Assembly (NCBI GenBank): GCA_050015075.1
Contig: JBEKCB010000003.1
Span: 96,001-160,000 of the forward strand
Length of the DNA stretch: 64,000 nucleotides
DNA from: Candidatus Brocadiia bacterium
Lineage (GTDB): Bacteria > Planctomycetota > Brocadiia > CAIUPP01
Direction of reading: 5' to 3'
Shown: positions 2,221-18,469 of the stretch, one piece after another
Layout of the letters: each line of letters opens with the position of its first letter
Numbering within the stretch: the stretch's first letter is position 1
Notes under the pieces: model-generated
The model's input: the letters and a program-made list of their open reading frames with translations, nothing else
Told to the model about the DNA's origin: nothing
Database searches by the model: none
Program-made: the position numbers and the translations under genes

Positions 2221-3621
2221 TCACAGCGTGTAGCCGAGGCTCTTCAGTTGCTTGATCAGGTCCGCATCCGGTTCAATCGCTTTCCCCGCCTTAACCTCGG
2301 GGATTGAGGGCGGCCCCTCCGTCAAGGCTCGGAGGGCGGCCTCCGGACAGTCTTTCTTCAGGTCCGCGCCGGCGATGACCTTCTCGCGGCCGCCGGCCAC
2401 TTCTTCCAGTTGGGCGCCGTCGAGCGTTCCCTTCATCGAGCCCAGAAGCTTGCGATTGCCCCAGCGAACCGCCTTCAAGTTAAGCCCCGACAGCTCGCTG
2501 TAGATCAGGCGCTCGGCGACCGGCTGATCGCTCAGAATCGCCGGCGACAGATCAATCCCTTGAATCTGCGACGGGCATGCCAGATGGAGAAGCCCCAGCG
2601 CCGTCGGCATCAAGTCAACGTGGCTGACGTTTCCGGCCACGCGCTTGCCGGCCGGAATCACACCGGGCAGCCGCATGATGAGCGGCACATGAATCAGCTC
2701 CTCGTAGAGGCTGTTGCCGTGGGTCAACAGGCCGTGCTCAAGAAATCCCTCGCCATGATCGGACAATACGATCACCAGCGTTTTCTCGGAAAGCCCCAGG
2801 TCCTGAAGAAGCTGAAGGACCTTGCCGACGTGCTCGTCCGTGTAGGCGATTCCTCCGTCGTAGAGAGCCACCAGATGCGCCAGGTCCATGATCGAGATAT
2901 GCGCCGTCATGTCGGCCTGGCGCCACCCGATGCCGCGGCCGTTCTCTTTCCCCTTGTAGCCGGGGTCGAATTTCCTGTCGAAGGGCGCCGGCGCAATGTA
3001 GTCGTAATGGCAGTCCCAATAATGCAGGAAGAGGAAGAAATTCTCCCGGGAATGCTTCCGGAGCCATTGCGTGGCCAGGTTCGTGATCCCGGGATTCGTG
3101 GCGACATCGCCGGCCCCGGTCCTGTGCAACGCACTGACCGTGAAGTCGTCATAAGATTGAAAGCCGCGGTTGAATCCGAAGTCGTGATTCAATGCGGGCC
3201 CCGTGACAAAAGCCGCTGTCACATATCCGCTTTGGGCCAGGCACTGCGCCAGCGTCGGAACGCCTTCGGCCAGCCTGGCGACGGCCGGCACCCCGTGGAC
3301 GCTGGCATAAAGCGAGGTGAACATGCTCATGTGCGACGGGATTGTCCAGGACGTCGCCGCGGTCAGGTTCTCAAACAGCACCCCTTCCTTGGCCAGTTGG
3401 TCGAGGTGGGGCGAGGTATCGCGGTTGTAGCCGTAGCAGGTCAGGTGATCGGCGCGACACGTATCTATCGAGATGACCAGCAGGTTATATTTGATCGCCG
3501 GCTGCAGCTCCGCCGCGCCGGCGGTCGAGGCGGAAAGCAGAGAGATCAAAATCAGGCAGAGGGGAAAGCAGTTCACGCGCCGCGAGCCAGGCTTGGAAAA
3601 TGCCGGTTTTGCATGCAGCAT
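2221..3621 (-). CDS. Sulfatase-fold hydrolase, paralog 3
   Basis: Same motifs (SWTIPSHMSMFT, SDHGE); signal-peptide-like N-terminus. Confidence 0.9.
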   Translation of the reverse strand: MLHAKPAFSKPGSRRVNCFPLCLILISLLSASTAGAAELQPAIKYNLLVISIDTCRADHLTCYGYNRDTSPHLDQLAKEGVLFENLTAATSWTIPSHMSMFTSLYASVHGVPAVARLAEGVPTLAQCLAQSGYVTAAFVTGPALNHDFGFNRGFQSYDDFTVSALHRTGAGDVATNPGITNLATQWLRKHSRENFFLFLHYWDCHYDYIAPAPFDRKFDPGYKGKENGRGIGWRQADMTAHISIMDLAHLVALYDGGIAYTDEHVGKVLQLLQDLGLSEKTLVIVLSDHGEGFLEHGLLTHGNSLYEELIHVPLIMRLPGVIPAGKRVAGNVSHVDLMPTALGLLHLACPSQIQGIDLSPAILSDQPVAERLIYSELSGLNLKAVRWGNRKLLGSMKGTLDGAQLEEVAGGREKVIAGADLKKDCPEAALRALTEGPPSIPEVKAGKAIEPDADLIKQLKSLGYTL

Positions 3622-3748
3622 CGAATAATTCTCGGATACTTAAGATTGACGGAGGCTGCCCGCGACAGGCGCTCCAGGGACAAGCCGGCGCCGCCAACGA
3701 AGCTACTTTAGCACAAGGGGCCGGCAACCGCAATAGGCCGGCGCGACC

Positions 3749-3805
3749 GCTCGTAGCGTGCCCGTAAGGGCATACGAAACAGCGCCTGACGGCGCCGCTG
3801 CAAGC
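3749..3805. repeat. GTAG-type REP doublet, copy 1 (slightly degenerate)
   Basis: GTAGcGTGCCC-GTAA-GGGCATAC...AGCGCC-TGAC-GGCGCC; near-identical copies at 15344 and 41458. Confidence 0.8.
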
Positions 3806-3836
3806 AATCGGCGATTGCGAGGTCTTGAAGCCTGTC

Positions 3837-5522
3837 CTAAGTCGCGCCGAAGCAGACCAGCGTCAAATCGTCGCTCTGGTGGGCGCTGCCGACGAAGGCG
3901 TGGACGTCCCGAAGGATGTTCTCCATCCACTGCGCGGCGGAAGCGGCCGGCAGCGCCGCGACGGACTTGAGCCGGCCGCTGCCGTAGCTGTCCTGCTGCG
4001 CGTTCATCGCCTCGGTGATCCCGTCGGAGTAAAAGCAGACGAAGTCCCCCGGCTCGATCCGGAAACTCTCCGCCTCGAACTCCGCGCCCGGCATGACGCC
4101 GACGGGGAAGTTGGTGCAGGTCTGAATCTCGGAGACCCGGCCGGTGGAACCTTTCCGCAGGAGCGGCGGCGGATGGCCGGCGTTCACCATCTGAAGGGTC
4201 CGGCTGCGCGGATCGAGGAGGGCGAAAACGAGCGTGATGAACGAGCTTTCGGCCTCCATCGCCGCCAGGCGGTCGTTGACGAGGGCGACCACGCGGCGCG
4301 GCTCGTCCGAGGCCAGCGCGAACTCGCGGACCGTGCTGCTCATCCGCGCCATCATCAGCGCGGCGGGAATGCCTTTCCCGGCAACGTCGCCGACGACGAT
4401 CGCCAGCGAGCCGCCCTCGAGCGGGATGAAGTCGTAGAAGTCGCCGCCGACCTCCAGCGCCGCTTTGTACGAACAGCAGAACTGCATGCCGGCGACCTCC
4501 GGCAAACGCCTCGGCAGGAACGATTCCTGCACCTGCCGCGCGAACTGCAGGTCGCGCTCGGTGCGCTCCTGGAGGAGCAGCCTGTGGTGCAGCCGCGCGT
4601 TCGCGATGGCGAAGGCGGTCTGGCTGGTGATCCCGGCGAGCAGTTCCAGGTCGTCCCGCGTGAACTGCCGGTCCTGCCGGGTGGTGTCCAGGTGGATGAT
4701 GCCGAGCGCCTCGTCGTTGACGACGATCGGCGCGCACATCATCGAGCGGATCCGGAAATTCATCACGCTCAGCGCCATGGCGAAGCGCTGGTCGCCCATC
4801 GCGTCGGCGCTGAGGAGCGCCACGCGGTCGCCCATCGCTTTCTGGACGATGGAGCGGCTGAGGGTGATCGCCTCGGGCTGCTCGCGTCCGCGCTGCCGTG
4901 CCGCTCGCGGGACCAGCTCGTCGGACTCGTCGGCCTTCAGCATGATGAAGCCGCGGTCGGCCTGCGGAAAGACGCCGAAGAGGCGGTCCATGATTTCGTT
5001 GAGCAGTTTGTCCATGTCGAGCTGGGTCTGGACGGCGTTGCTGATTTCGAGCACGGCGCGGAGCCGCTGCCGGGCCTTGATGAGCGCGTCGGGCGCGGTG
5101 ATCCGCTGGGCCATGGCGGCTTCCATCGAAACCGCCTTCACCTCGAGCGTCTCCAGCGCCGGCGGCGCCGCGGCCGACGGCTCGTCTACGATCGTGACCC
5201 CGCTCTGGCGCGACGGCTCGGATTCCGAGGCGAATCGGAAAACGTTATCGGCCAGCTCGATCCGGTCGCCGTTCTTCAGCGGAATGGGCGCCGCGATGGT
5301 CTTTCCGTTCACGGCCGTCCCGTTGCCGCTGCCGAGGTCCTCGATGAAGTAGCTGCCGCCGACGAGGGAAATTCGCGCATGGCGCCGGCTGATGGCCAGG
5401 TCGTCCAGGCGCAGATCGGCCTCGATGGACCGCCCCAGCACCATGGCCTCGCGCAGCGGGAATGTCTGCCCCTTGAACGGCCCTTCGATGGCGATCAGCT
5501 TCGACAATTTTGTAATTTCCAA
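3837..5522 (-). CDS. FHA-GAF-SpoIIE (PP2C-type) Ser/Thr phosphatase
   Basis: FHA motifs (LGRS, ISRRHA, DLGSGNGT), GAF region (SMMCAPI), SpoIIE motifs (VGGDFYD, GDVAGKG, NAGHPPP, YSDGITE, DDLT). Confidence 0.9.
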   Translation of the reverse strand: MEITKLSKLIAIEGPFKGQTFPLREAMVLGRSIEADLRLDDLAISRRHARISLVGGSYFIEDLGSGNGTAVNGKTIAAPIPLKNGDRIELADNVFRFASESEPSRQSGVTIVDEPSAAAPPALETLEVKAVSMEAAMAQRITAPDALIKARQRLRAVLEISNAVQTQLDMDKLLNEIMDRLFGVFPQADRGFIMLKADESDELVPRAARQRGREQPEAITLSRSIVQKAMGDRVALLSADAMGDQRFAMALSVMNFRIRSMMCAPIVVNDEALGIIHLDTTRQDRQFTRDDLELLAGITSQTAFAIANARLHHRLLLQERTERDLQFARQVQESFLPRRLPEVAGMQFCCSYKAALEVGGDFYDFIPLEGGSLAIVVGDVAGKGIPAALMMARMSSTVREFALASDEPRRVVALVNDRLAAMEAESSFITLVFALLDPRSRTLQMVNAGHPPPLLRKGSTGRVSEIQTCTNFPVGVMPGAEFEAESFRIEPGDFVCFYSDGITEAMNAQQDSYGSGRLKSVAALPAASAAQWMENILRDVHAFVGSAHQSDDLTLVCFGAT

Positions 5523-5717
5523 AATCAGCAGCTTGTCCGCCGTTGCCCTGAGCGCAGCCGAAGGGGCGAAGGCGGATCGGCAATTCGATCAGCATATCTT
5601 GTCGGCAACCTTGTTTCAACGATTTTCGAGCCGGGGCGGTTCCGCGTTTGACCGGCTTGCCGCCGCAAGGCTAGAATCCGCGCTGAGCTGAATGCGGCGT
5701 TTGCGGAGAAAGCGGAG

Positions 5718-6590
5718 ATGATGAAGAGCTGCCTCCTGTGCAGTCTGTTCGTCCTGGTTCTGGCCGCTCCGAACGCGGCGCAGGCGCAGCATCTCTGGTG
5801 GGCCTCCGAAGACCCCGGAAAGCCGCAGGAGAAGAGGACCCTGCTTTACGGCGAAATCGAGGTGCTCGCCAGCGGGCCGGGCATCTACTTCTGCGGGGTC
5901 AACTGGTCCGGCGGCTATTGCGGGATCCAGGAGCACGCCGAGAAGAAACGGAATACGATCTTCTCGGAGTGGGATCCGTCGCCGACCTTGCATCCGAGCG
6001 TCGTCCATGCCGATGCGCGCGCCGTCTGCAAGCGCTTCGGCGGCGAGGGCACCGGCGAGCATACGGACCTGGATTACCCGTGGCAAGAGGGCCGGCCGTA
6101 CCGGTTCGCCGTCGCCAAGCAGCCCGACGCGTCCGGCGACAATACGCTGATCACCTTCTATTTCTTCGACGCGCCGCTCAACAAGTGGGTGCTCCAGGCG
6201 ACGCTTTCCACCCCGAACGGCGGCAAGGATTCCGTGCGCTATTTCAACCGGCCGAACCTGAATTCCTTCCTGGAGAACTTCGCCGGCCAGCAGCCCGAAA
6301 TCCCGAAACTCTGTCTCTATCGGCTCTGGGCCGGGTCCGCGCCGGAGAACCTGGTCTGTCTGCGCAAGGCCAAAGGCGACGGACCCTGGGGCGTTCTGAA
6401 CGACAGCTTCTACCTGGCCCAGGGCAAAGATCAGGCCGCACTGGACGCGCTCGTCGCCAAACAGCCGAAGTCCAGGGACAGCCGGATCGGCCTGATCAAA
6501 GGCGCGAAGGCGCCGCTGGCCGTTCCCGACCGGAAATTGCCGGCGGAGATCATCGCCGAGCTGAAGGCGCTTCCGAAGCCGAGCCCGTAA
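5718..6590 (+). CDS. Secreted DUF3472-like protein
   Basis: Signal peptide; YFC..NW.GGYCGIQ, IFS.WD, RFGGEGTG and SFLENF motifs that I recall from DUF3472 proteins. Confidence 0.65.
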   Translation: MMKSCLLCSLFVLVLAAPNAAQAQHLWWASEDPGKPQEKRTLLYGEIEVLASGPGIYFCGVNWSGGYCGIQEHAEKKRNTIFSEWDPSPTLHPSVVHADARAVCKRFGGEGTGEHTDLDYPWQEGRPYRFAVAKQPDASGDNTLITFYFFDAPLNKWVLQATLSTPNGGKDSVRYFNRPNLNSFLENFAGQQPEIPKLCLYRLWAGSAPENLVCLRKAKGDGPWGVLNDSFYLAQGKDQAALDALVAKQPKSRDSRIGLIKGAKAPLAVPDRKLPAEIIAELKALPKPSP

Positions 6591-6671
6591 GCTGAGCGGA
6601 AAACTCAGCCGTAAAGATGATAGAATCAGGGAGCCAGTCTGGCGTCCGGGAAACAAGTTGCATAATGTGCG

Positions 6672-6757
6672 GTCATTCCGAGCGAAGCGAGGAATCTCAT
6701 ACGCAGCGCGCCTGCAACGGTTTGTGGTATGAGACCCTTCACTGCGCTCAGGGCGAC
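6672..6757. repeat. Extragenic palindromic element (GTCATTCCGAGCGAAGCGAGGAATCT...GAGACCCTTCACTGCGCTCAGGGCGAC)
   Basis: Imperfect inverted arms with internal hairpins; resembles a widespread REP-like repeat family; intergenic. Confidence 0.7.
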
Positions 6758-6824
6758 GCGGTCTGAAGTTATGCGCGTTATTCCTGGAACACGATGCTGA
6801 AATGAACACGGCACTTGGGGAAAG

Positions 6825-7949
6825 ATGAAGACCATGAAACCGCTTCTGCGTGGAAGTTTCGCATTCGCGCTGGCCGCGCTGCTGGGCGCCAGTTGCGCGG
6901 GTCAGCCGGCCGGCGAAGGCGCGGCGTCTTCGGCGGCGACCGCCGTGTCCTCCCCGGCGACGACGGCGTCTTTACCGCCGACGATGGCGCCGCCACGGCC
7001 GGGCGTCGTGCTGCTGTACGAGCCGAAGACGCTCGACGAGACCGTCGCGGTCGTGAAGCTCGTCCGCGACGACATGGAGATTCGTCCCATCATCGAGCAG
7101 GCCGGCGAGGAAGCCGGCCAGGCGATCCGGGCGTTCCAGGCGGCGGCGCTCGGCGTCAACGCGCCTGGAGGCCGGCGGGGCGCGCCGGCATCCAAGGAGA
7201 CGCTGGAGAAGCTCCGCAAGGCGGCCCGCGAAAAAGTGACTCGGTACCAGGGCCTGATCCAGCAGCAGCGCGACGCCTACGAGGCGTTCCTCCAGAAGTA
7301 TCCCGACGACTGGTTCCAGCGCCACCGCTACGCCTCGTTCCTGGCCGATTTCCATCTCGCCGACGAGGCCGCCGCCGAGTGGCGGCGCGTCATCGAGCAG
7401 GCGCCCACGTTCCCTTATGCCTACAATAACCTCGGCACGCTCTACAACCACATGGGCCGCGATCTCGAGGCGATCCTGCTCTACCGCAAGGCGATTGAGC
7501 TGTATCCGGACGACGCCGATTTCCACCTGAACCTGGCGGTGAACTACTCGACCCATCGCTCCGAGGCTTCCAAGGAGTTCGGCTGGACCCTGCCGGTGGT
7601 CTTCCACGAGTGCATCCTCTCCTATCAGCGCGCGCGCGCCCTGAGGCCGCAGGACCCGGAGATCGCCTACGATCTCGCGAGCCAGTACGTCCTGGCGAAG
7701 TACTTCGGCGTCAAGGACACCGGCGACGAGGCGATCGAGGCGTGGAAGTATTACCTCACGCTCGACCTGACGCCCACGCAGCGCGGCGTCGCCGAGCGCA
7801 ACATGGCCACGCTCTACCTCAAGCAGAAAAACGACCCCGCCGCCGCGCAGAAGTTGCTCGAGGAGGCGCTGACGCTGCTGCCCGACGATGCCACCTGCAA
7901 GATGCTCCTCAAACAGGCCGCGGCCGCGCAGGCGAAACCGACACCGTGA
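6825..7949 (+). CDS. TPR-repeat lipoprotein
   Basis: Lipobox-like LGASC; TPR motifs AYNNLGTLY and FHLNLAVNY. Confidence 0.8.
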   Translation: MKTMKPLLRGSFAFALAALLGASCAGQPAGEGAASSAATAVSSPATTASLPPTMAPPRPGVVLLYEPKTLDETVAVVKLVRDDMEIRPIIEQAGEEAGQAIRAFQAAALGVNAPGGRRGAPASKETLEKLRKAAREKVTRYQGLIQQQRDAYEAFLQKYPDDWFQRHRYASFLADFHLADEAAAEWRRVIEQAPTFPYAYNNLGTLYNHMGRDLEAILLYRKAIELYPDDADFHLNLAVNYSTHRSEASKEFGWTLPVVFHECILSYQRARALRPQDPEIAYDLASQYVLAKYFGVKDTGDEAIEAWKYYLTLDLTPTQRGVAERNMATLYLKQKNDPAAAQKLLEEALTLLPDDATCKMLLKQAAAAQAKPTP

Positions 7950-7960
7950 CATCAAAATTA

Positions 7961-8153
7961 TTGACCGCGAAAACGCGAAAACGGCAACGGAAAAGATACT
8001 TGAAACCACAGAGCGATAGCGCGAGCGGGCGAGCGCTGCTTATCGCCACAGATAACCACAGATACGAAGTTTCTTAACTCTGTAAATCTGTGTTCATCTG
8101 TGTCCATCTGTAGTTTAAATTCGTCTTTCGCGTTTTCGCGCTTTCGCGGTCAA
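7961..8153. repeat. Nested inverted-repeat element built from short-period tandem arms
   Basis: Outer arms TTGACCGCGAAAACGCGAAA / TTTCGCGTTTTCGCGCTTTCGCGGTCAA; inner arms of CACAGAT / ATCTGTG units; extra hairpin at 8013-8046. Confidence 0.8.
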
Positions 8154-8183
8154 GCGGTCGTTCCGTTGTGGAATGGAGCCGGC

Positions 8184-9641
8184 GTGAAGTCAGACCAGCG
8201 GTCGGAATCGGAAGTCATGGCGGCGCTCCGCGACGCGGGGCAAGGGCACGTGCTGCGCTGGTGGGACGAGCTGGACCCGGCCGGGCGCGCGCGGCTGATG
8301 GAGCAGTTGCGCTCGGTGGAACTCGACGGGCTCCGCGCGCTGATCGCCGACGTCCGCGCGGGCCGGATCAACGCGCCGCCGGCGGGCCGGCCCGAGCTGC
8401 CCGATTACGTCCGGCTGCCGTCCACGCCGGAGGAAAAGAGCGCGCGCGAGAACGCCCGCGCGGCGGGCGAGCGGCTGTTCCGGGCCGGCAAGGTCGCCGC
8501 CGTCATGGTCGCCGGCGGCCAGGGCACGCGGCTGGGGCTCGATGCGCCGAAAGGAACTTTTCCCATCGGCCCCGTGTCCGGCCGTTCGCTCTTCCAGATC
8601 CACGCCGAGCGCATCCTGGCCACGCGCCGGCGCTGCGGCGGCCCGTTGCCGTGGTACATCATGACCAGCGACGCCACCGACCAGCCGACGAAGGACTATT
8701 TCGAAAAGCATGCCTGGTTCGGCCTGCCGCGCGAGGACGTGCGGTTCTTCCGGCAGCGCATGATCCCCGCGCTCGACCGGAACTTCCGCCTGGTCCTCGT
8801 CGCGAAGGACCGGATTCTCCTCAGCCCGAACGGCCACGGCGGCACGCTGACCGCCCTGGCCGAGAGCGGCATGCTCGACGACATGGAGCGGCGCGGCGTC
8901 GAGGAGATCAGCTATTTTCACGTGGACAACGGCCTGGCGCCGGCGGCGGACCCGGTCTTCGTCGGCAGCCATTCGCTCGCCGGAGCCGAGATGTCGTGCA
9001 AGGCGCTGTGGAAGCGCGAGCCGGAAGAGCCGCTCGGCGCGTTCGTCCGCGTCGGCGCCGCCGGGGACGCTCGCGCGCCGGAGCCGCGGCTCGTCGTCCG
9101 CGAATACAGCGATCTCACCCCCGAGCAGAAGCACCAGCGGACCGCCGGCGGGCGGCTTCTCTACGGCCTCGGCAGCATCGGGATGCACGTTCTCCGCGTG
9201 GACTTCGTCCGGAGCGAGACGCAGCCCGGCTTCAGCCTGCCGTTCCACCTGGCGGAGAAAAGTTCGCCGTTCCTCGACGAATCCGGCGCGCTCGTGCAGC
9301 CGAAGGACAAGAACGTTTTCAAGTTCGAGATGTTCATCTTCGACGCGTTGCGCGACGCGCGCCGCATCGTGGTGCTCGAAGTCCGCCGCGAGGAGGAGTT
9401 CTCGCCGCTCAAGAACGCGAAGGGAGTGGATTCGCCCGAGACGGCCCGGCGCGACATGAGCGCGCTCTACGCCGGCTGGCTGGAGCAGGCCGGCGTGCGC
9501 GTCCCGCGCGACGAGCACGGCGCGCCGAAACACCCGATCGAGATCAGCCCGCTCTTCGCGCTCGACGCCGCCGAGCTGGCCGGGAAAATCCCCAGGGACC
9601 TGAACGTCGCCGCGCCGGTCCTGCTCGCGCCGCAGGGTTGA
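8184..9641 (+). CDS. UDPGP-family UDP-N-acetylhexosamine/UDP-sugar pyrophosphorylase (UAP1-like)
   Basis: Motifs AGGQGTRLG..PKG, WYIMTS, SPNGHGG, VDN, EYSDL, KFEMFIFD, EEFSPLKNA. GTG start after a GGAG RBS; start uncertain. Confidence 0.9.
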   Translation: MKSDQRSESEVMAALRDAGQGHVLRWWDELDPAGRARLMEQLRSVELDGLRALIADVRAGRINAPPAGRPELPDYVRLPSTPEEKSARENARAAGERLFRAGKVAAVMVAGGQGTRLGLDAPKGTFPIGPVSGRSLFQIHAERILATRRRCGGPLPWYIMTSDATDQPTKDYFEKHAWFGLPREDVRFFRQRMIPALDRNFRLVLVAKDRILLSPNGHGGTLTALAESGMLDDMERRGVEEISYFHVDNGLAPAADPVFVGSHSLAGAEMSCKALWKREPEEPLGAFVRVGAAGDARAPEPRLVVREYSDLTPEQKHQRTAGGRLLYGLGSIGMHVLRVDFVRSETQPGFSLPFHLAEKSSPFLDESGALVQPKDKNVFKFEMFIFDALRDARRIVVLEVRREEEFSPLKNAKGVDSPETARRDMSALYAGWLEQAGVRVPRDEHGAPKHPIEISPLFALDAAELAGKIPRDLNVAAPVLLAPQG

Positions 9642-15428: not shown

Positions 15429-16370
15429 TCAGCCGGCTTCGGGCTCGCGCTCGTGGAGCTTGACGAGGTCCGCGAGGAGTTCCTTCATGTTCGGGTAGCG
15501 GCGCTCCGGCGACTTCGCCATGCAACGCAGGATGATCGGTTCGAGGCCTTCGGGCAGGTCGCGCGCGACCTCGGTCGGCCGGGGCGGCGGATCATGCACG
15601 TGCTTTTGCATCAACTCCGACGCCCGGCGCGCGGCGTGGGCGGGATCGCGCGGGCCGCGCCCCACCGAAAAAGGCAGGCTGCCGGTGAAGATCTCGAACA
15701 GGACCACGCCGAAGGAGTAGATGTCCGCCGCCGGCGCGAGGCGGCGGCCTTCGCACTGTTCAGGCGACATGGTGGTCAGCGTGCCGCTCTTTTCCTCGAA
15801 GGCGATCCCGGCGGGCGCGGTGAAGCCCAGGTCAATCAGCTTCGTCCGGCCGTCCTTGGAGAAGAGGATGTTATCCGAGCAGACGTCCCGGTGAACCAGC
15901 CCGTGCTCGTGGATGATCGCCAGCGCGGAGCCGGCGGCTTGGAGGATCTCCAGCCGATTCCTGCGCAGCCGCGGATCGGCGCAGCCGAGCATGTGCTTGA
16001 GGTTGGCGCCGTCCACGAACTCCTGGACGAGGTACTGGCAGCGCGCCGGATCGTTGCATTCCCATCCGTAGGTGAAGGTCCGCACGATGGGGAAACTCGG
16101 GTCGAAGATCGTCGTGGGCGGAGTCAGCAGGACGCCGACCTCGCCCTCGCAGGGCACGCCGTAGCGTTTCTGCATGCGGCGCGACGTGCGGTCGTATCCG
16201 GGCTTGTAGAGCTTGAGCGCGTACAGGGCCGGGTCCGGCGGCCGGCGCGCCTGGTACACGCAGGCCTTTTCGCCGTCATGCACCGGCCGGATGGGATGGA
16301 ACTCGCGGAAATGCCGCTTTTCCGCGCGCCGCGCCCAGCCGAACCATTCCCGCCAGAATGATTTCGCCAT
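15429..16370 (-). CDS. Hanks-type Ser/Thr protein kinase (kinase domain only)
   Basis: YALKLY, LVQEFVDG.NL, HRDVCSDNIL, KLIDLG, MSPEQ, DIYSFGV, PERRY. Confidence 0.9.
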   Translation of the reverse strand: MAKSFWREWFGWARRAEKRHFREFHPIRPVHDGEKACVYQARRPPDPALYALKLYKPGYDRTSRRMQKRYGVPCEGEVGVLLTPPTTIFDPSFPIVRTFTYGWECNDPARCQYLVQEFVDGANLKHMLGCADPRLRRNRLEILQAAGSALAIIHEHGLVHRDVCSDNILFSKDGRTKLIDLGFTAPAGIAFEEKSGTLTTMSPEQCEGRRLAPAADIYSFGVVLFEIFTGSLPFSVGRGPRDPAHAARRASELMQKHVHDPPPRPTEVARDLPEGLEPIILRCMAKSPERRYPNMKELLADLVKLHEREPEAG

Positions 16371-16559: not shown

Positions 16560-16605
16560 ACGGTGCCTATTGCCGGCGTCCGTTGCCTTGAGGGAGGAGC
16601 GGAAG

Positions 16606-17388
16606 ATGGCTCTCGGAAGAAATTACGTGCTGGCCATCGTCGCGGTCGCAGGCATTCTGGCGCTCGCGCTGATTGGGGCGGGCGTGCTCGACGTGACGCA
16701 GAAGACCGGCTATGTCAGGATCAACGTCTCCGACAAGAGCGCGGTCTGGCTGGAATTTAAAGGCGCGGAACTGCGCGCCGCTGCGAGCGCGGAGGGGCTG
16801 AAGACCGCAGAGCCGGTCGCGCTGCGCGTGCTGGCCAATCAAGTGGCACAGTCTTCGGAGTTCTCGCTCCCGATCCCGTCCGATCAGCTTCCCAAAGGGA
16901 TCAGCGCCGTCAAGGGGACCTTCACACGGTTTGGGAACAGAGTCCAGGGCCAGTTGGGAATCTGCCGGACGGACGAGCAGAAGTACATCTGGCAATGCGA
17001 CGTCCGGATCGCGTCTTCGACCGGCAATACCGCGGTCGCGGCGAGGACGATGCAGTTGCCCAGCCTGGACAAGATCGCACTGACCGTCAGCGCCACGCCC
17101 TCGAACGGGAAGTTGGGCGTCGGCGTGCGGCTCACGGCGGGCATCAACCAGTTGAGCGGCGTGCGCAAGTATGGAAAGCCCGTGCTGGTGCAGGTCAGCG
17201 TGACGGACGCCTCCGGCAATGAGGTGAGCGCGAGGAAGGGGCCGTTGACCGATTTCGGGTTCTCCTGAGGCGGCGGCGCCTGCTACTCCGTGGGAGTAGA
17301 GAAAGGGACGTATACGTGCGCCGCGACGATGGACGTCGGGCCGTTCGGGTCGGCTGTGAAGGGCGAGACGAAGGTCGTCGTGCCGTAA
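16606..17388 (+). CDS. Probable selenoprotein: membrane-anchored hypothetical protein, 260 aa, Sec at codon 221
   Basis: Strong RBS and N-terminal TM. The TGA at 17266-17268 is followed in frame by GGGACYSVGVEKGTYTCAATMDVGPFGSAVKGETKVVVP-TAA with normal GC-rich codon usage. A SECIS-like hairpin follows the TGA. Confidence 0.7.
17266..17299 (+). promoter_or_regulatory. Putative bacterial SECIS element
   Basis: TGA, 14 nt, then a perfect 7-bp stem CTACTCC/GGAGTAG with loop GTG; 21 nt separate the UGA from the loop G. Confidence 0.65.
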
Positions 17389-17433
17389 CAAGGAATTGCC
17401 GGCAAAAGCGTTCTTCCTGGGTGGGCGGAAGAG

Positions 17434-18003
17434 GTGACAGGCGAGCCGATCAGCGAGGCGAGCGCGGGTTGGAGCCGGCGCAACGTGGCCGGCGTCGCGA
17501 TCGCGTTGATCGGGTTCGGGCTGGTCGTATTCGCCGTTGCCTGGTTCATAAACCTGGCCTTGCAGGTATTGCCGGTCCTGCTCCCCGGACTCGAGCAGAA
17601 TTCCAATAAACCTCTGCTCCTGATGCTGTGCGGGAATGCCTTTTTCAGGCTGTTCCTGGGGCTCTGGCTGATCGCGCATCACAGGAAAATCTCCACCCGC
17701 CTTTTCCGCGCCGCGGCGGGCGCGCCGGTGGCCGAGCGGCGGGCCGCGCTGGCTTTCGGGATCAAGGCCTACGCCGTTTACATGGCCGCGTCCGCCGCGA
17801 GCTGGCTGGTCCTTGCAGCGTCAAACGGAATTGGGCAGGCTCTCAGGCTGGCCGGCAGCCGCGATCGGGCGATGCTGTGGTATATGGTGCCGTCTTGCCT
17901 GATGTACCTGGCCGAAATCGTGGCCTGCCTTTACTTTCTGAAGCGCCCCGGATGGCTCGTCTCATTTGCGTATCCGGAAGGAGAACCCGATGAAGATGCG
18001 TGA
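17434..18003 (+). CDS. Hypothetical integral membrane protein (about 4 TM)
   Basis: Four hydrophobic segments; GTG start after GAGG; C-terminal WLVSFAYP. Confidence 0.65.
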   Translation: MTGEPISEASAGWSRRNVAGVAIALIGFGLVVFAVAWFINLALQVLPVLLPGLEQNSNKPLLLMLCGNAFFRLFLGLWLIAHHRKISTRLFRAAAGAPVAERRAALAFGIKAYAVYMAASAASWLVLAASNGIGQALRLAGSRDRAMLWYMVPSCLMYLAEIVACLYFLKRPGWLVSFAYPEGEPDEDA

Positions 18004-18469
18004 CGCCGCCGAAGTGACGTTGAGCATCCTGGGCGTGTCCAGAATCGTTCAGGCCACGATCGAAACGCCGGGCCTGGCCTATGCTTTGTATCTTCGTTTC
18101 GGGTACACGGGGCAACCGGCGTCGTTCACAACAACGCTAATACTGCTGCGCAATTTCGGAGGCTTCGCTGCAAACCTGGTCGTCGGCATTCTTCTCGCGC
18201 TGCTGGCGGGCCGGCTCGCAGACTGGTTGGTGCGGCGCAGCGTTTCGCTGGCCGGAACTGATGTGGACTTGCGGATCGTATCGCCGGAGGGATTCCGATT
18301 CTGCCTCAAGCTCGTCGGAATCTCCCTGCTTATCACGGGCGTGACGACGCTGGTGCAATGGGACTGGCCGCGCGTCATCGCCGGCGCGCTGACGCTGGCG
18401 CCGGCGGTTTACCTGATCCGAGGCGGCGGCTGGCTCACCCGGTTCGCCTGGGGCAAAGCCGGAGCATAA
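17990..18469 (+). CDS. Hypothetical integral membrane protein (about 4 TM), probably related to the upstream gene
   Basis: RBS AAGGAG; similar TM spacing and C-terminus YLIRGGGWLTRFAW. Confidence 0.65.
   Translation: MKMRDAAEVTLSILGVSRIVQATIETPGLAYALYLRFGYTGQPASFTTTLILLRNFGGFAANLVVGILLALLAGRLADWLVRRSVSLAGTDVDLRIVSPEGFRFCLKLVGISLLITGVTTLVQWDWPRVIAGALTLAPAVYLIRGGGWLTRFAWGKAGA

Follow-up and report, generated by a model that had tools for sequence, protein, structure and literature searches.

Does the TGA codon that appears to terminate an ordinary open reading frame (ORF) mark the actual end of the encoded protein, or is it instead an instruction to insert selenocysteine (Sec) and to continue? 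The question is posed by a gene at positions 16606-17388 of a 64,000-nucleotide stretch of DNA from a Candidatus Brocadiia bacterium (hereafter ‘the window’), which corresponds to positions 96001-160000 of contig JBEKCB010000003.1 (G000:C3 in the numbering of genomes and contigs used here). The parent assembly, GCA_050015075.1, comprises 4.64 Mb in 66 contigs and is 93.6% complete. A comparison of this gene with its relatives, described below, leads us to place a probability of roughly 0.88 on the interpretation that it encodes a 260-residue selenoprotein, in which the UGA at 17266-17268 is decoded as Sec, and that this protein represents an uncatalogued, membrane-anchored family.

A reading frame that continues beyond an internal TGA

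When translated with genetic code table 11, the ORF begins at ATG 16606, 8 nucleotides downstream of a Shine-Dalgarno-like GGAGG that can be read at 16593-16597 on the forward strand, and ends at TGA 17266-17268 with the residues ...KGPLTDFGFS. Past that codon the same frame remains open for another 39 sense codons, until a TAA at 17386-17388; with the TGA read as Sec (U), the product is 260 amino acids in length and contains U221 and C226. The full selenoprotein coding sequence (16606-17388, forward strand, as are all of the features that follow) therefore corresponds to 260 codons, including the Sec codon at position 221, plus the terminal TAA, and homology crosses the TGA at all of the loci examined. 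Within it, a hydrophobic N-terminal helix (residues 6-29; 16621-16692) is a predicted signal or membrane anchor, modelled as a helix by AlphaFold2 at low confidence; the segment F217-G-F-S-U221-G-G-G-A-C226 (17254-17283), in which F217, G218, F219, S220, U221, G223 and C226 are invariant alignment columns, forms a putative active-site loop; and the codon of the partner cysteine, Cys226, lies at 17281-17283 and is invariant in a 16-sequence alignment. The 39-codon C-terminal extension (17269-17385) encodes the last three predicted beta-strands of the second domain, and a hairpin that resembles a bacterial selenocysteine insertion sequence (bSECIS) lies within it at 17283-17299. A prior inspection of the letters and their translations, made by a model without database searches (the ‘sequence-only reading’), had already described the gene coordinates, the TGA, the 39-codon continuation, the U221/C226 pair and the hairpin, all of which are present exactly as it gave them.

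Conservation of the TGA among homologs

Pattern scans for the DNA of homologous genes returned two genome loci and 12 metagenome loci, from which four were set aside (L023, which is the window's own contig; L032, which is identical to L031; and L030 and L034, which end before the column in question). The ten loci that remained, together with the window, have TGA as their internal stop in every case (11 of 11). Both tblastn and profile matches span the TGA and proceed to the end of the extension, covering query residues 1-260, which answers in the negative the question of whether homology stops at FGFS. A search of the entire source genome located five copies of the family, each with exactly one TGA inside it, and a sample of 61 genomes from the same class contained matches in four genomes, again with exactly one internal TGA in every match (11/11). 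Altogether, 17 homologous genes were read as DNA; these range from 27 to 100% protein identity to the query and have TGA at the Sec column without exception, and the terminal stops of the same genes vary (7 TAA, 7 TAG and 2 TGA among the 16 that were read). The sequence-only reading had also asked which residue occupies this column elsewhere: apart from TGA in 17 of 17 genes, it is Cys in four relatives that lack a TGA, and the sole Trp occurs in a protein (P0045) that lacks the partner Cys.

The corresponding picture in protein databases is one of systematic truncation. When 5.8 billion proteins were searched by word seeding, 29 matches were obtained; 19 were aligned, of which 14 terminate precisely at ...FGFS or the corresponding residues (at identities down to 44%) and the other five are frameshifted or partial calls. 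Two of the matches are carried by NCBI as a 220-residue ‘hypothetical protein’. A HMMER profile search of 1.84 billion cluster representatives, where clusters were drawn at 50% identity, detected 281 at E <= 0.001 and 219 at E <= 1e-10, so that the family comprises at least 281 such clusters. The best 150 representatives consist of 129 that stop at the Sec column (their tails including FGFT in 31 cases, FGFS in 29 and FGFG in 26), 14 that run past it and 7 that are partial or frameshifted. Almost all of the family thus appears to be annotated as hypothetical proteins of approximately 220 residues that end at the UGA.

The extension as protein, and the pairing of Sec with Cys

Among the 17 genes, the differences per codon position are 0.241, 0.207 and 0.419 in the extension, and 0.404, 0.308 and 0.422 in the 60 codons that precede the TGA. 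The extension (37-40 codons) is therefore better conserved than the 60 upstream codons, with drift at the third position, and its changes in length always involve whole codons. Judged by this pattern of substitution, it is in-frame protein-coding sequence.

The invariant columns of the 16-sequence read-through alignment include F217, G218, F219, S220, U221, G223, C226, S228, V229, V231, A240 and G245. Because they cluster around the UGA, its neighbourhood represents the most conserved part of the protein, centred on the motif FGFS-U-xG-x(1-2)-C-x-SV. Between the two residues of interest, four positions intervene in the window gene (U-x4-C) and three or four in its relatives (U-x3-C or U-x4-C). 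In four relatives (P0034, P0135, G130 and G275), the U column is occupied by Cys and the second Cys is retained; G130 and G275 are genomes from another family of the same phylum, in which the Cys...Cys form is found inside a longer protein. Such Cys forms are rare, amounting to two (P0034 and P0135) among the best 150 representatives. The 14 representatives that run past the column consist of these two, 11 that lack both U and the partner Cys, and P0058, in which the U column is seemingly deleted and a Cys persists near the partner position. A twelfth full-length relative without both residues is the first copy of a two-copy protein (P0038), the second copy of which ends in ...DFGFT and places the protein among the 129 above. 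Sec and its partner Cys are thus kept or lost together, as expected of a functional pair.

Several longer architectures were also encountered. P0038 and P0100 each contain two domains in tandem, the first without Sec and Cys and the second ending at the Sec column, and P0102, P0155 and P0151 are fusions to a hydrophobic N-terminal region of approximately 170 (P0151) to 340 residues. Judged by eye, these long N-terminal regions look like multi-spanning membrane segments; a search of nine longer members of the family found no Pfam domains.

A hairpin resembling a bacterial SECIS

The hairpin of the window gene has a 7-bp stem, CTACTCC (17283-17289) paired with GGAGTAG (17293-17299), or CUACUCC/GGAGUAG in the transcript, closed by a GTG (GUG) loop at 17290-17292. 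It begins 14 nucleotides past the TGA, and its apical loop starts 21 nucleotides after that codon. In a 2026 review (PMC13188914), the bSECIS model is defined by an apical loop of 3-9 nucleotides, a stem of 4-16 bp, a distance of 16-37 nucleotides from UGA to loop and an energy of -7.5 kcal/mol or lower, with a G within the first two loop positions that is mostly followed by G or U. The hairpins of all 17 homologous genes satisfy that published model: their stems are 7-9 bp long, their distances from the UGA are 17-21 nucleotides, their energies range from -7.6 to -12.3 kcal/mol and their loops are GUG, GUC, GUU or CGUGN (3 or 5 nucleotides). The conservation of the hairpin, which had been posed as a further check on the prediction, thus extends to 17 of 17 genes.

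Codon choice within the stem is similarly constrained. TCC encodes Ser228 in 17 of 17 genes but makes up 24% of the Ser codons in the remainder of these genes; residue 230 has the codon NGA throughout (GGA in 13 of 13 cases of Gly, AGA or CGA in 4 of 4 cases of Arg, against a background of 13% for each); and Val231 is GTA or GTG in all 17, versus a background of 41% (with GTA alone at 4%). Val229, the codon of the loop, varies at its wobble position (GTG, GTC or GTT). Codon usage at synonymous sites hence supports the predicted stem, with counts that overstate the independence of the observations on account of kinship among the 17 genes.

The selenocysteine machinery and its genomic neighbourhood

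Whether the organism possesses the means to decode UGA as Sec was another point that had been raised beforehand, and selA, selB, selD and tRNA-Sec (selC) were all found in its genome. All are situated on a single contig (C13) and score above curated cut-offs: selB at 340.5 bits, selA at 533.1 bits, selD at 364.8 bits and tRNA-Sec at 60.9 bits, the last being assigned the anticodon tca by ARAGORN. The order of genes on C13 is selD (3410-5038; locus L046), four tandem paralogs of the family described here (5096-5872, 6306-7070, 7210-7965 and 8084-8824), tRNA-Sec (8999-9096), two URO-D-family genes, a 4Fe-4S protein, selA and selB. A family gene also lies no more than approximately 300 nucleotides upstream of tRNA-Sec in G001, G002, G041 and the metagenome loci L028 and L031; in G001 (same genus) and G002 (same family), selD is found upstream as well, and in G041 (another family of the class) the order is gene-tRNA-Sec-selA-selB. 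The window's own copy sits away from the sel genes, between a kinase gene and two genes for small hydrophobic proteins.

Across the class sample, selA is present in 34 of 61 genomes, including all four that carry the family, and a same-family relative without selA (G003) has no family copy. A sample of 401 genomes from the phylum contained matches in three, namely the window's own genome and the two with the Cys...Cys form (G130 and G275). That genes of the family repeatedly occur between selD and tRNA-Sec demonstrates their close connection with the Sec machinery, which entails co-inheritance at the least and probably co-expression. The arrangement may have arisen simply because the machinery and its main client are inherited together; a contribution to the supply of selenium is also possible.

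Some features of these neighbourhoods are recorded here for their own sake. The selD gene of C13 (3410-5038) carries a C-terminal fusion to a carboxymuconolactone decarboxylase (CMD/AhpD-like) domain, with matches to AIRS, AIRS_C and CMD, and the same C-terminal peptide of selD precedes the family gene in G001. The interval between tRNA-Sec and selA (C13:9873-13115, L046), which contains the two URO-D-family genes and a 4Fe-4S protein of the membrane type (Fer4_5), is absent from G041, where selA and selB directly follow tRNA-Sec. The copy beside tRNA-Sec in G002 (C123:110234-110779, L050) matches the query only from residue 84 onward, with stops interrupting the frame upstream; its broken N-terminus may reflect a frameshift, an assembly error or decay of that region. 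A Sec-type formate dehydrogenase was not found in the window's own genome with model TIGR01553, for which the best match (151 bits) falls below the cut-off and contains no internal stop.

Predicted structure

An AlphaFold2 model computed from the 16-sequence alignment has a mean predicted local distance difference test (pLDDT) value of 84.2 and a predicted template modelling (pTM) score of 0.74. It consists of the N-terminal helix (residues 6-29, at low confidence) followed by two all-beta domains, with one additional helix of only five residues. The extension contributes strands 227-230, 234-243 and 250-259, in a block with pLDDT values of 89-95; since these are three strands of the second domain, a 220-residue product would be without them. 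Residues 222-224, immediately after Sec, have pLDDT values below 50, which is consistent with a flexible Sec/Cys loop. The N-terminal hydrophobic segment suggests that the beta-sandwich portion would be exported or otherwise extracytoplasmic, and the corresponding segment of some paralogs ends in ...GAGC, which looks lipoprotein-like.

In a wide search with VIA-align, residues 154-260 superpose on Ig/FN3-like sandwiches with Z scores of 7.3-9.1 and root-mean-square deviations of 1.9-3.6 A over 65-93 residues, where a Z of about 8-9 is close to the usual best score for models that have no true relative. A Foldseek search of the PDB gave only weak matches to tandem FN3/Ig or adhesin structures, with template modelling scores below 0.3. 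The likeness to FN3/Ig beta-sandwiches is a generic one, and none of the matched domains is annotated with a Sec/Cys loop. No redox or carrier fold stood out with VIA-align; SoxY is absent from the 50 matches listed by either search, and thioredoxin-like folds from the 50 listed by VIA-align, although some similarity to them may exist. In SoxY, a beta-sandwich protein of the periplasm, a Cys within a flexible peptide rich in Gly serves as the covalent attachment point of the substrate, and the protein described here, with Sec and Cys on a Gly-rich flexible loop of a beta-sandwich, offers an analogy to it. However, the Cys of SoxY is at the extreme C-terminus rather than in an internal loop, and the two proteins have no sequence relation.

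Comparison with known selenoprotein families

NCBIfam is the collection in which recently described selenoprotein families are modelled, and a search with four members of the family (E <= 1) produced nothing beyond a chance 12.7-bit match to a phage tail tube protein. Pfam gave no match above threshold, the best being He_PIG, a ‘putative Ig domain’, at E 0.51. Unlike redox selenoproteins of the thioredoxin fold, the protein has no UxxC or CxxU motif, and its predicted model is nearly all-beta after the N-terminal helix. The earlier statement that it resembles no classical selenoprotein family is borne out by these searches and by the model, and the accompanying suggestion of an undescribed family agrees with its absence from the family models and from the catalogue table that were checked. 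That table (PMC13188914, 2026, Table 1), which covers 119 families and subfamilies, has no entry for an FGFS-U-GGxC motif or a U-x3-4-C beta-sandwich. Searches of the literature returned no description of the family, which may nevertheless have been listed earlier as an unnamed candidate in supplementary tables.

In its general plan the gene is like other bacterial selenoprotein genes that contain a SECIS within the ORF: a UGA is followed immediately by a 3' hairpin, the small loop of which starts with GU and is 17-21 nucleotides away; selA, selB, selD and tRNA-Sec are present; Cys homologs exist; and a partner Cys is nearby. It differs from them in that no family model fits and in the rarity of its Cys forms.

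DUF1573 is an Ig-like secreted domain. A DUF1573 domain-containing selenoprotein (PF07610) with a UGC motif is among the entries of the same catalogue table (PMC13188914, Table 1), and the family described here is like it in being non-thioredoxin and uncharacterised, with Sec near Cys in a Gly-containing motif, but has no match to PF07610 at E <= 1 and a U-x3-4-C rather than a UGC arrangement. Other selenoprotein families have recently been recognised through their truncation at the UGA in databases, one of them being the MerB-like SaoL (bioRxiv 10.1101/2022.07.06.499078). In contrast to SaoL, for which fold, motif and neighbourhood are all different, the present proteins combine FGF[STG]-U-xG-x1-2-C with the gene order selD...tRNA-Sec-selA-selB, and have no NCBIfam model.

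Interpretation and its alternatives

In the mechanism that we propose, the UGA at 17266-17268 would be decoded as Sec by the organism's own SelA, SelB, SelD and tRNA-Sec, with the hairpin inside the coding sequence (and its GU-containing apical loop, 21 nucleotides past the UGA) directing that event. The product would comprise an N-terminal hydrophobic anchor and two beta-sandwich domains, with Sec221 and Cys226 on an exposed, Gly-rich flexible loop of the second, Ig/FN3-like domain, where the two might act as a single unit that cycles between the selenol/thiol and selenenylsulfide states. The comparative evidence supports the view that a known bacterial mechanism of Sec decoding is used, and that what is new is the family. 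This interpretation has come through every refutation named beforehand by the sequence-only reading: the machinery is encoded, homology continues beyond FGFS, the column is occupied as described above and the hairpin is conserved.

A number of results nevertheless weigh against the interpretation or restrict it. The 17 genes are mutually related and so do not constitute independent observations, and the presence of TGA at the ends of the 129 truncated representatives is an extrapolation from those same 17 genes. The hairpin is no more stable than shuffled sequence (a fold of 71 nucleotides has a z-score of -0.45), and a chance check, which used a perfect-stem implementation of the bSECIS criteria, located comparable hairpins at 92 of the 1,542 TGA trinucleotides in the window (6%) and at 6 of the 60 TGAs that end long open frames. 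Compensatory double changes were counted in none of nine hairpin pairs; the 10 changes present are all one-sided and compatible with wobble pairing, and the real alignment scores no better than its column shuffles. The structure of the hairpin therefore rests on conservation and codon choice, which are themselves confounded with the conserved peptide C-Y-S-V-G-V. An Rfam scan of 17150-17450 (E <= 10) returned no SECIS family and only a chance match to a miRNA. What raises the observation above chance is that the same TGA, hairpin and downstream peptide are conserved together in 17 of 17 genes. One of the 11 representatives without both residues (P0045) has Trp at the Sec column. With respect to function, the predicted fold is generic, and no conserved neighbour other than the sel genes was found in the neighbourhoods of the window's own genome and G041, the two copies in the latter having no common partner apart from those genes.

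Three alternatives dispute the decoding itself. That the UGA is read through without Sec, either by a near-cognate tRNA that inserts Trp, Cys or Arg or as a result of lineage-wide reassignment of the codon, is improbable: the Trp of P0045 is in its favour, as is the fact that the inserted residue cannot be deduced from sequence alone, but the selA, selB and selD frames of this genome and its relatives have no internal stops, and among the 120 long open frames of the window, 61 terminate in TGA, which implies that UGA is a normal stop here. Nor would such a mechanism account for a SECIS-type hairpin at the canonical distance in all 17 genes, for the physical linkage of family genes to tRNA-Sec, or for a recurrent replacement that, where the partner Cys is kept, is Cys and not Trp. 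Less probable still is a true stop that yields a 220-residue protein, with the downstream conservation due to an RNA element or a separate small gene. Gene callers and the NCBI annotation do end the protein at that point, and a conserved hairpin could in principle be regulatory; yet the downstream stretch evolves as protein in the same frame (with its excess of third-position changes and its insertions and deletions in multiples of three), conserved positions (G223 and C226) follow the TGA directly and no start codon is present at that point, no internal stop other than TGA occurs while the terminal stops vary, relatives that lack the TGA align colinearly through this position, and three strands of the predicted domain come from the extension. 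Finally, the bare presence of a stop codon is all that recommends a nonsense mutation, pseudogene or assembly error, an explanation that scarcely merits belief and is refuted by conservation, in that independent assemblies share the TGA, as do paralogs with as little as 27% identity, and this column also marks the end of 129 of the best 150 representatives.

A more substantial rival accepts the Sec and disputes its role. The Sec221/Cys226 loop might be a clamp or carrier for soft metals or chalcogens, which binds Hg, Cu, As or sulfur and selenium species through a Se-X-S bridge, or which captures selenium for SelD, rather than a catalytic redox pair. This is a genuine, if less favoured, possibility: the loop that bears the pair is rich in Gly and flexible (residues 222-224 have pLDDT values below 50), and no further invariant Cys or His is nearby; the U-x3-4-C spacing of the pair differs from the UxxC that characterises enzymes of the thioredoxin fold; several genomes have family genes lodged between selD and tRNA-Sec; and several of the selenoproteins catalogued in Table 1 of PMC13188914 are metal-related. 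Against it, proximity to sel genes is common among selenoprotein genes simply because they make use of that machinery, the copy in the window is located elsewhere, and no gene for a transporter or for metal resistance recurs as a neighbour. The gene neighbourhoods favour neither role; a redox role for Sec221 and Cys226 is slightly preferred over the clamp. A bolder proposal, in which the family is part of a selenium-utilisation module (a near Sec-obligate, membrane-anchored and extracytoplasmic protein, encoded between selD and tRNA-Sec and multiplied in tandem, whose Sec/Cys loop captures, relays or senses selenium at the cell surface for SelD), is speculative and rather unlikely; if it were true, the synthesis of selenocysteine would depend in part on a selenoprotein.

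Neighbouring genes and a second candidate family

Upstream of the selenoprotein gene, on the opposite strand, the window contains a Ser/Thr protein kinase gene (15429-16370; Pkinase, E 2.9e-25). Directly downstream on the forward strand are two genes (17434-18003 and 17966-18469) for small hydrophobic proteins of 189 and 167 amino acids, which have no Pfam match and which, to judge from their hydrophobicity, are probably membrane proteins. The orthologs in L021, L024 and L025 are likewise followed by a conserved start of the first of these genes. A single metatranscriptome run contained a contig of 168 nucleotides identical to positions 16989-17156 of the selenoprotein gene; it falls short of the UGA and might represent DNA carry-over, and is a weak sign that the gene is transcribed.

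A crude scan of the genome for further selenoproteins, which recovered two of the five genes of the present family and hence does not amount to a census, identified a second candidate family. Its three paralogs are located at C7:144745-146127 (reverse strand; L059), C35:35701-36864 (reverse strand; L060) and C54:1593-2465 (forward strand; L058) of the same genome (G000), and share a conserved in-frame TGA in a U-x-C motif, with the surrounding residues reading ...GYE-U-NC-MSDAAQFEP or ...GYS-U-GC-LTDAAQFEP. They have in common a hairpin (GCGGCUC-AGUUU-GAGCCGC) 23 nucleotides past the UGA, as well as N-terminal hydrophobic segments, and have no Pfam or NCBIfam match.

Significance

Annotation systematically under-reports the selenoproteins of bacteria, since it takes UGA for a stop, and current selenoprotein finders lean on Cys homologs or on models of known families. 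The rarity of its Cys forms would leave the present family hidden from finders that are based on Cys homologs. By its authors' own account, deep-Sep (PMC12013277) may miss selenoproteins that lack Cys homologs, and BSepDB (PMC13326102) compiles known families only. A model for the family would correct hundreds of gene calls.

For these uncultured bacteria, such a model would also raise the number of known selenoproteins, with five copies in the genome of the window alone. Several traits give the family its interest: it is large, is nearly always in the Sec form, is predicted to adopt a beta-sandwich rather than a thioredoxin fold, is probably extracytoplasmic, and is repeatedly encoded between selD and tRNA-Sec. 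With natural Cys/Cys relatives, and others that have lost both residues, available for comparison, it would offer a tractable case for asking why Sec is used in place of Cys.

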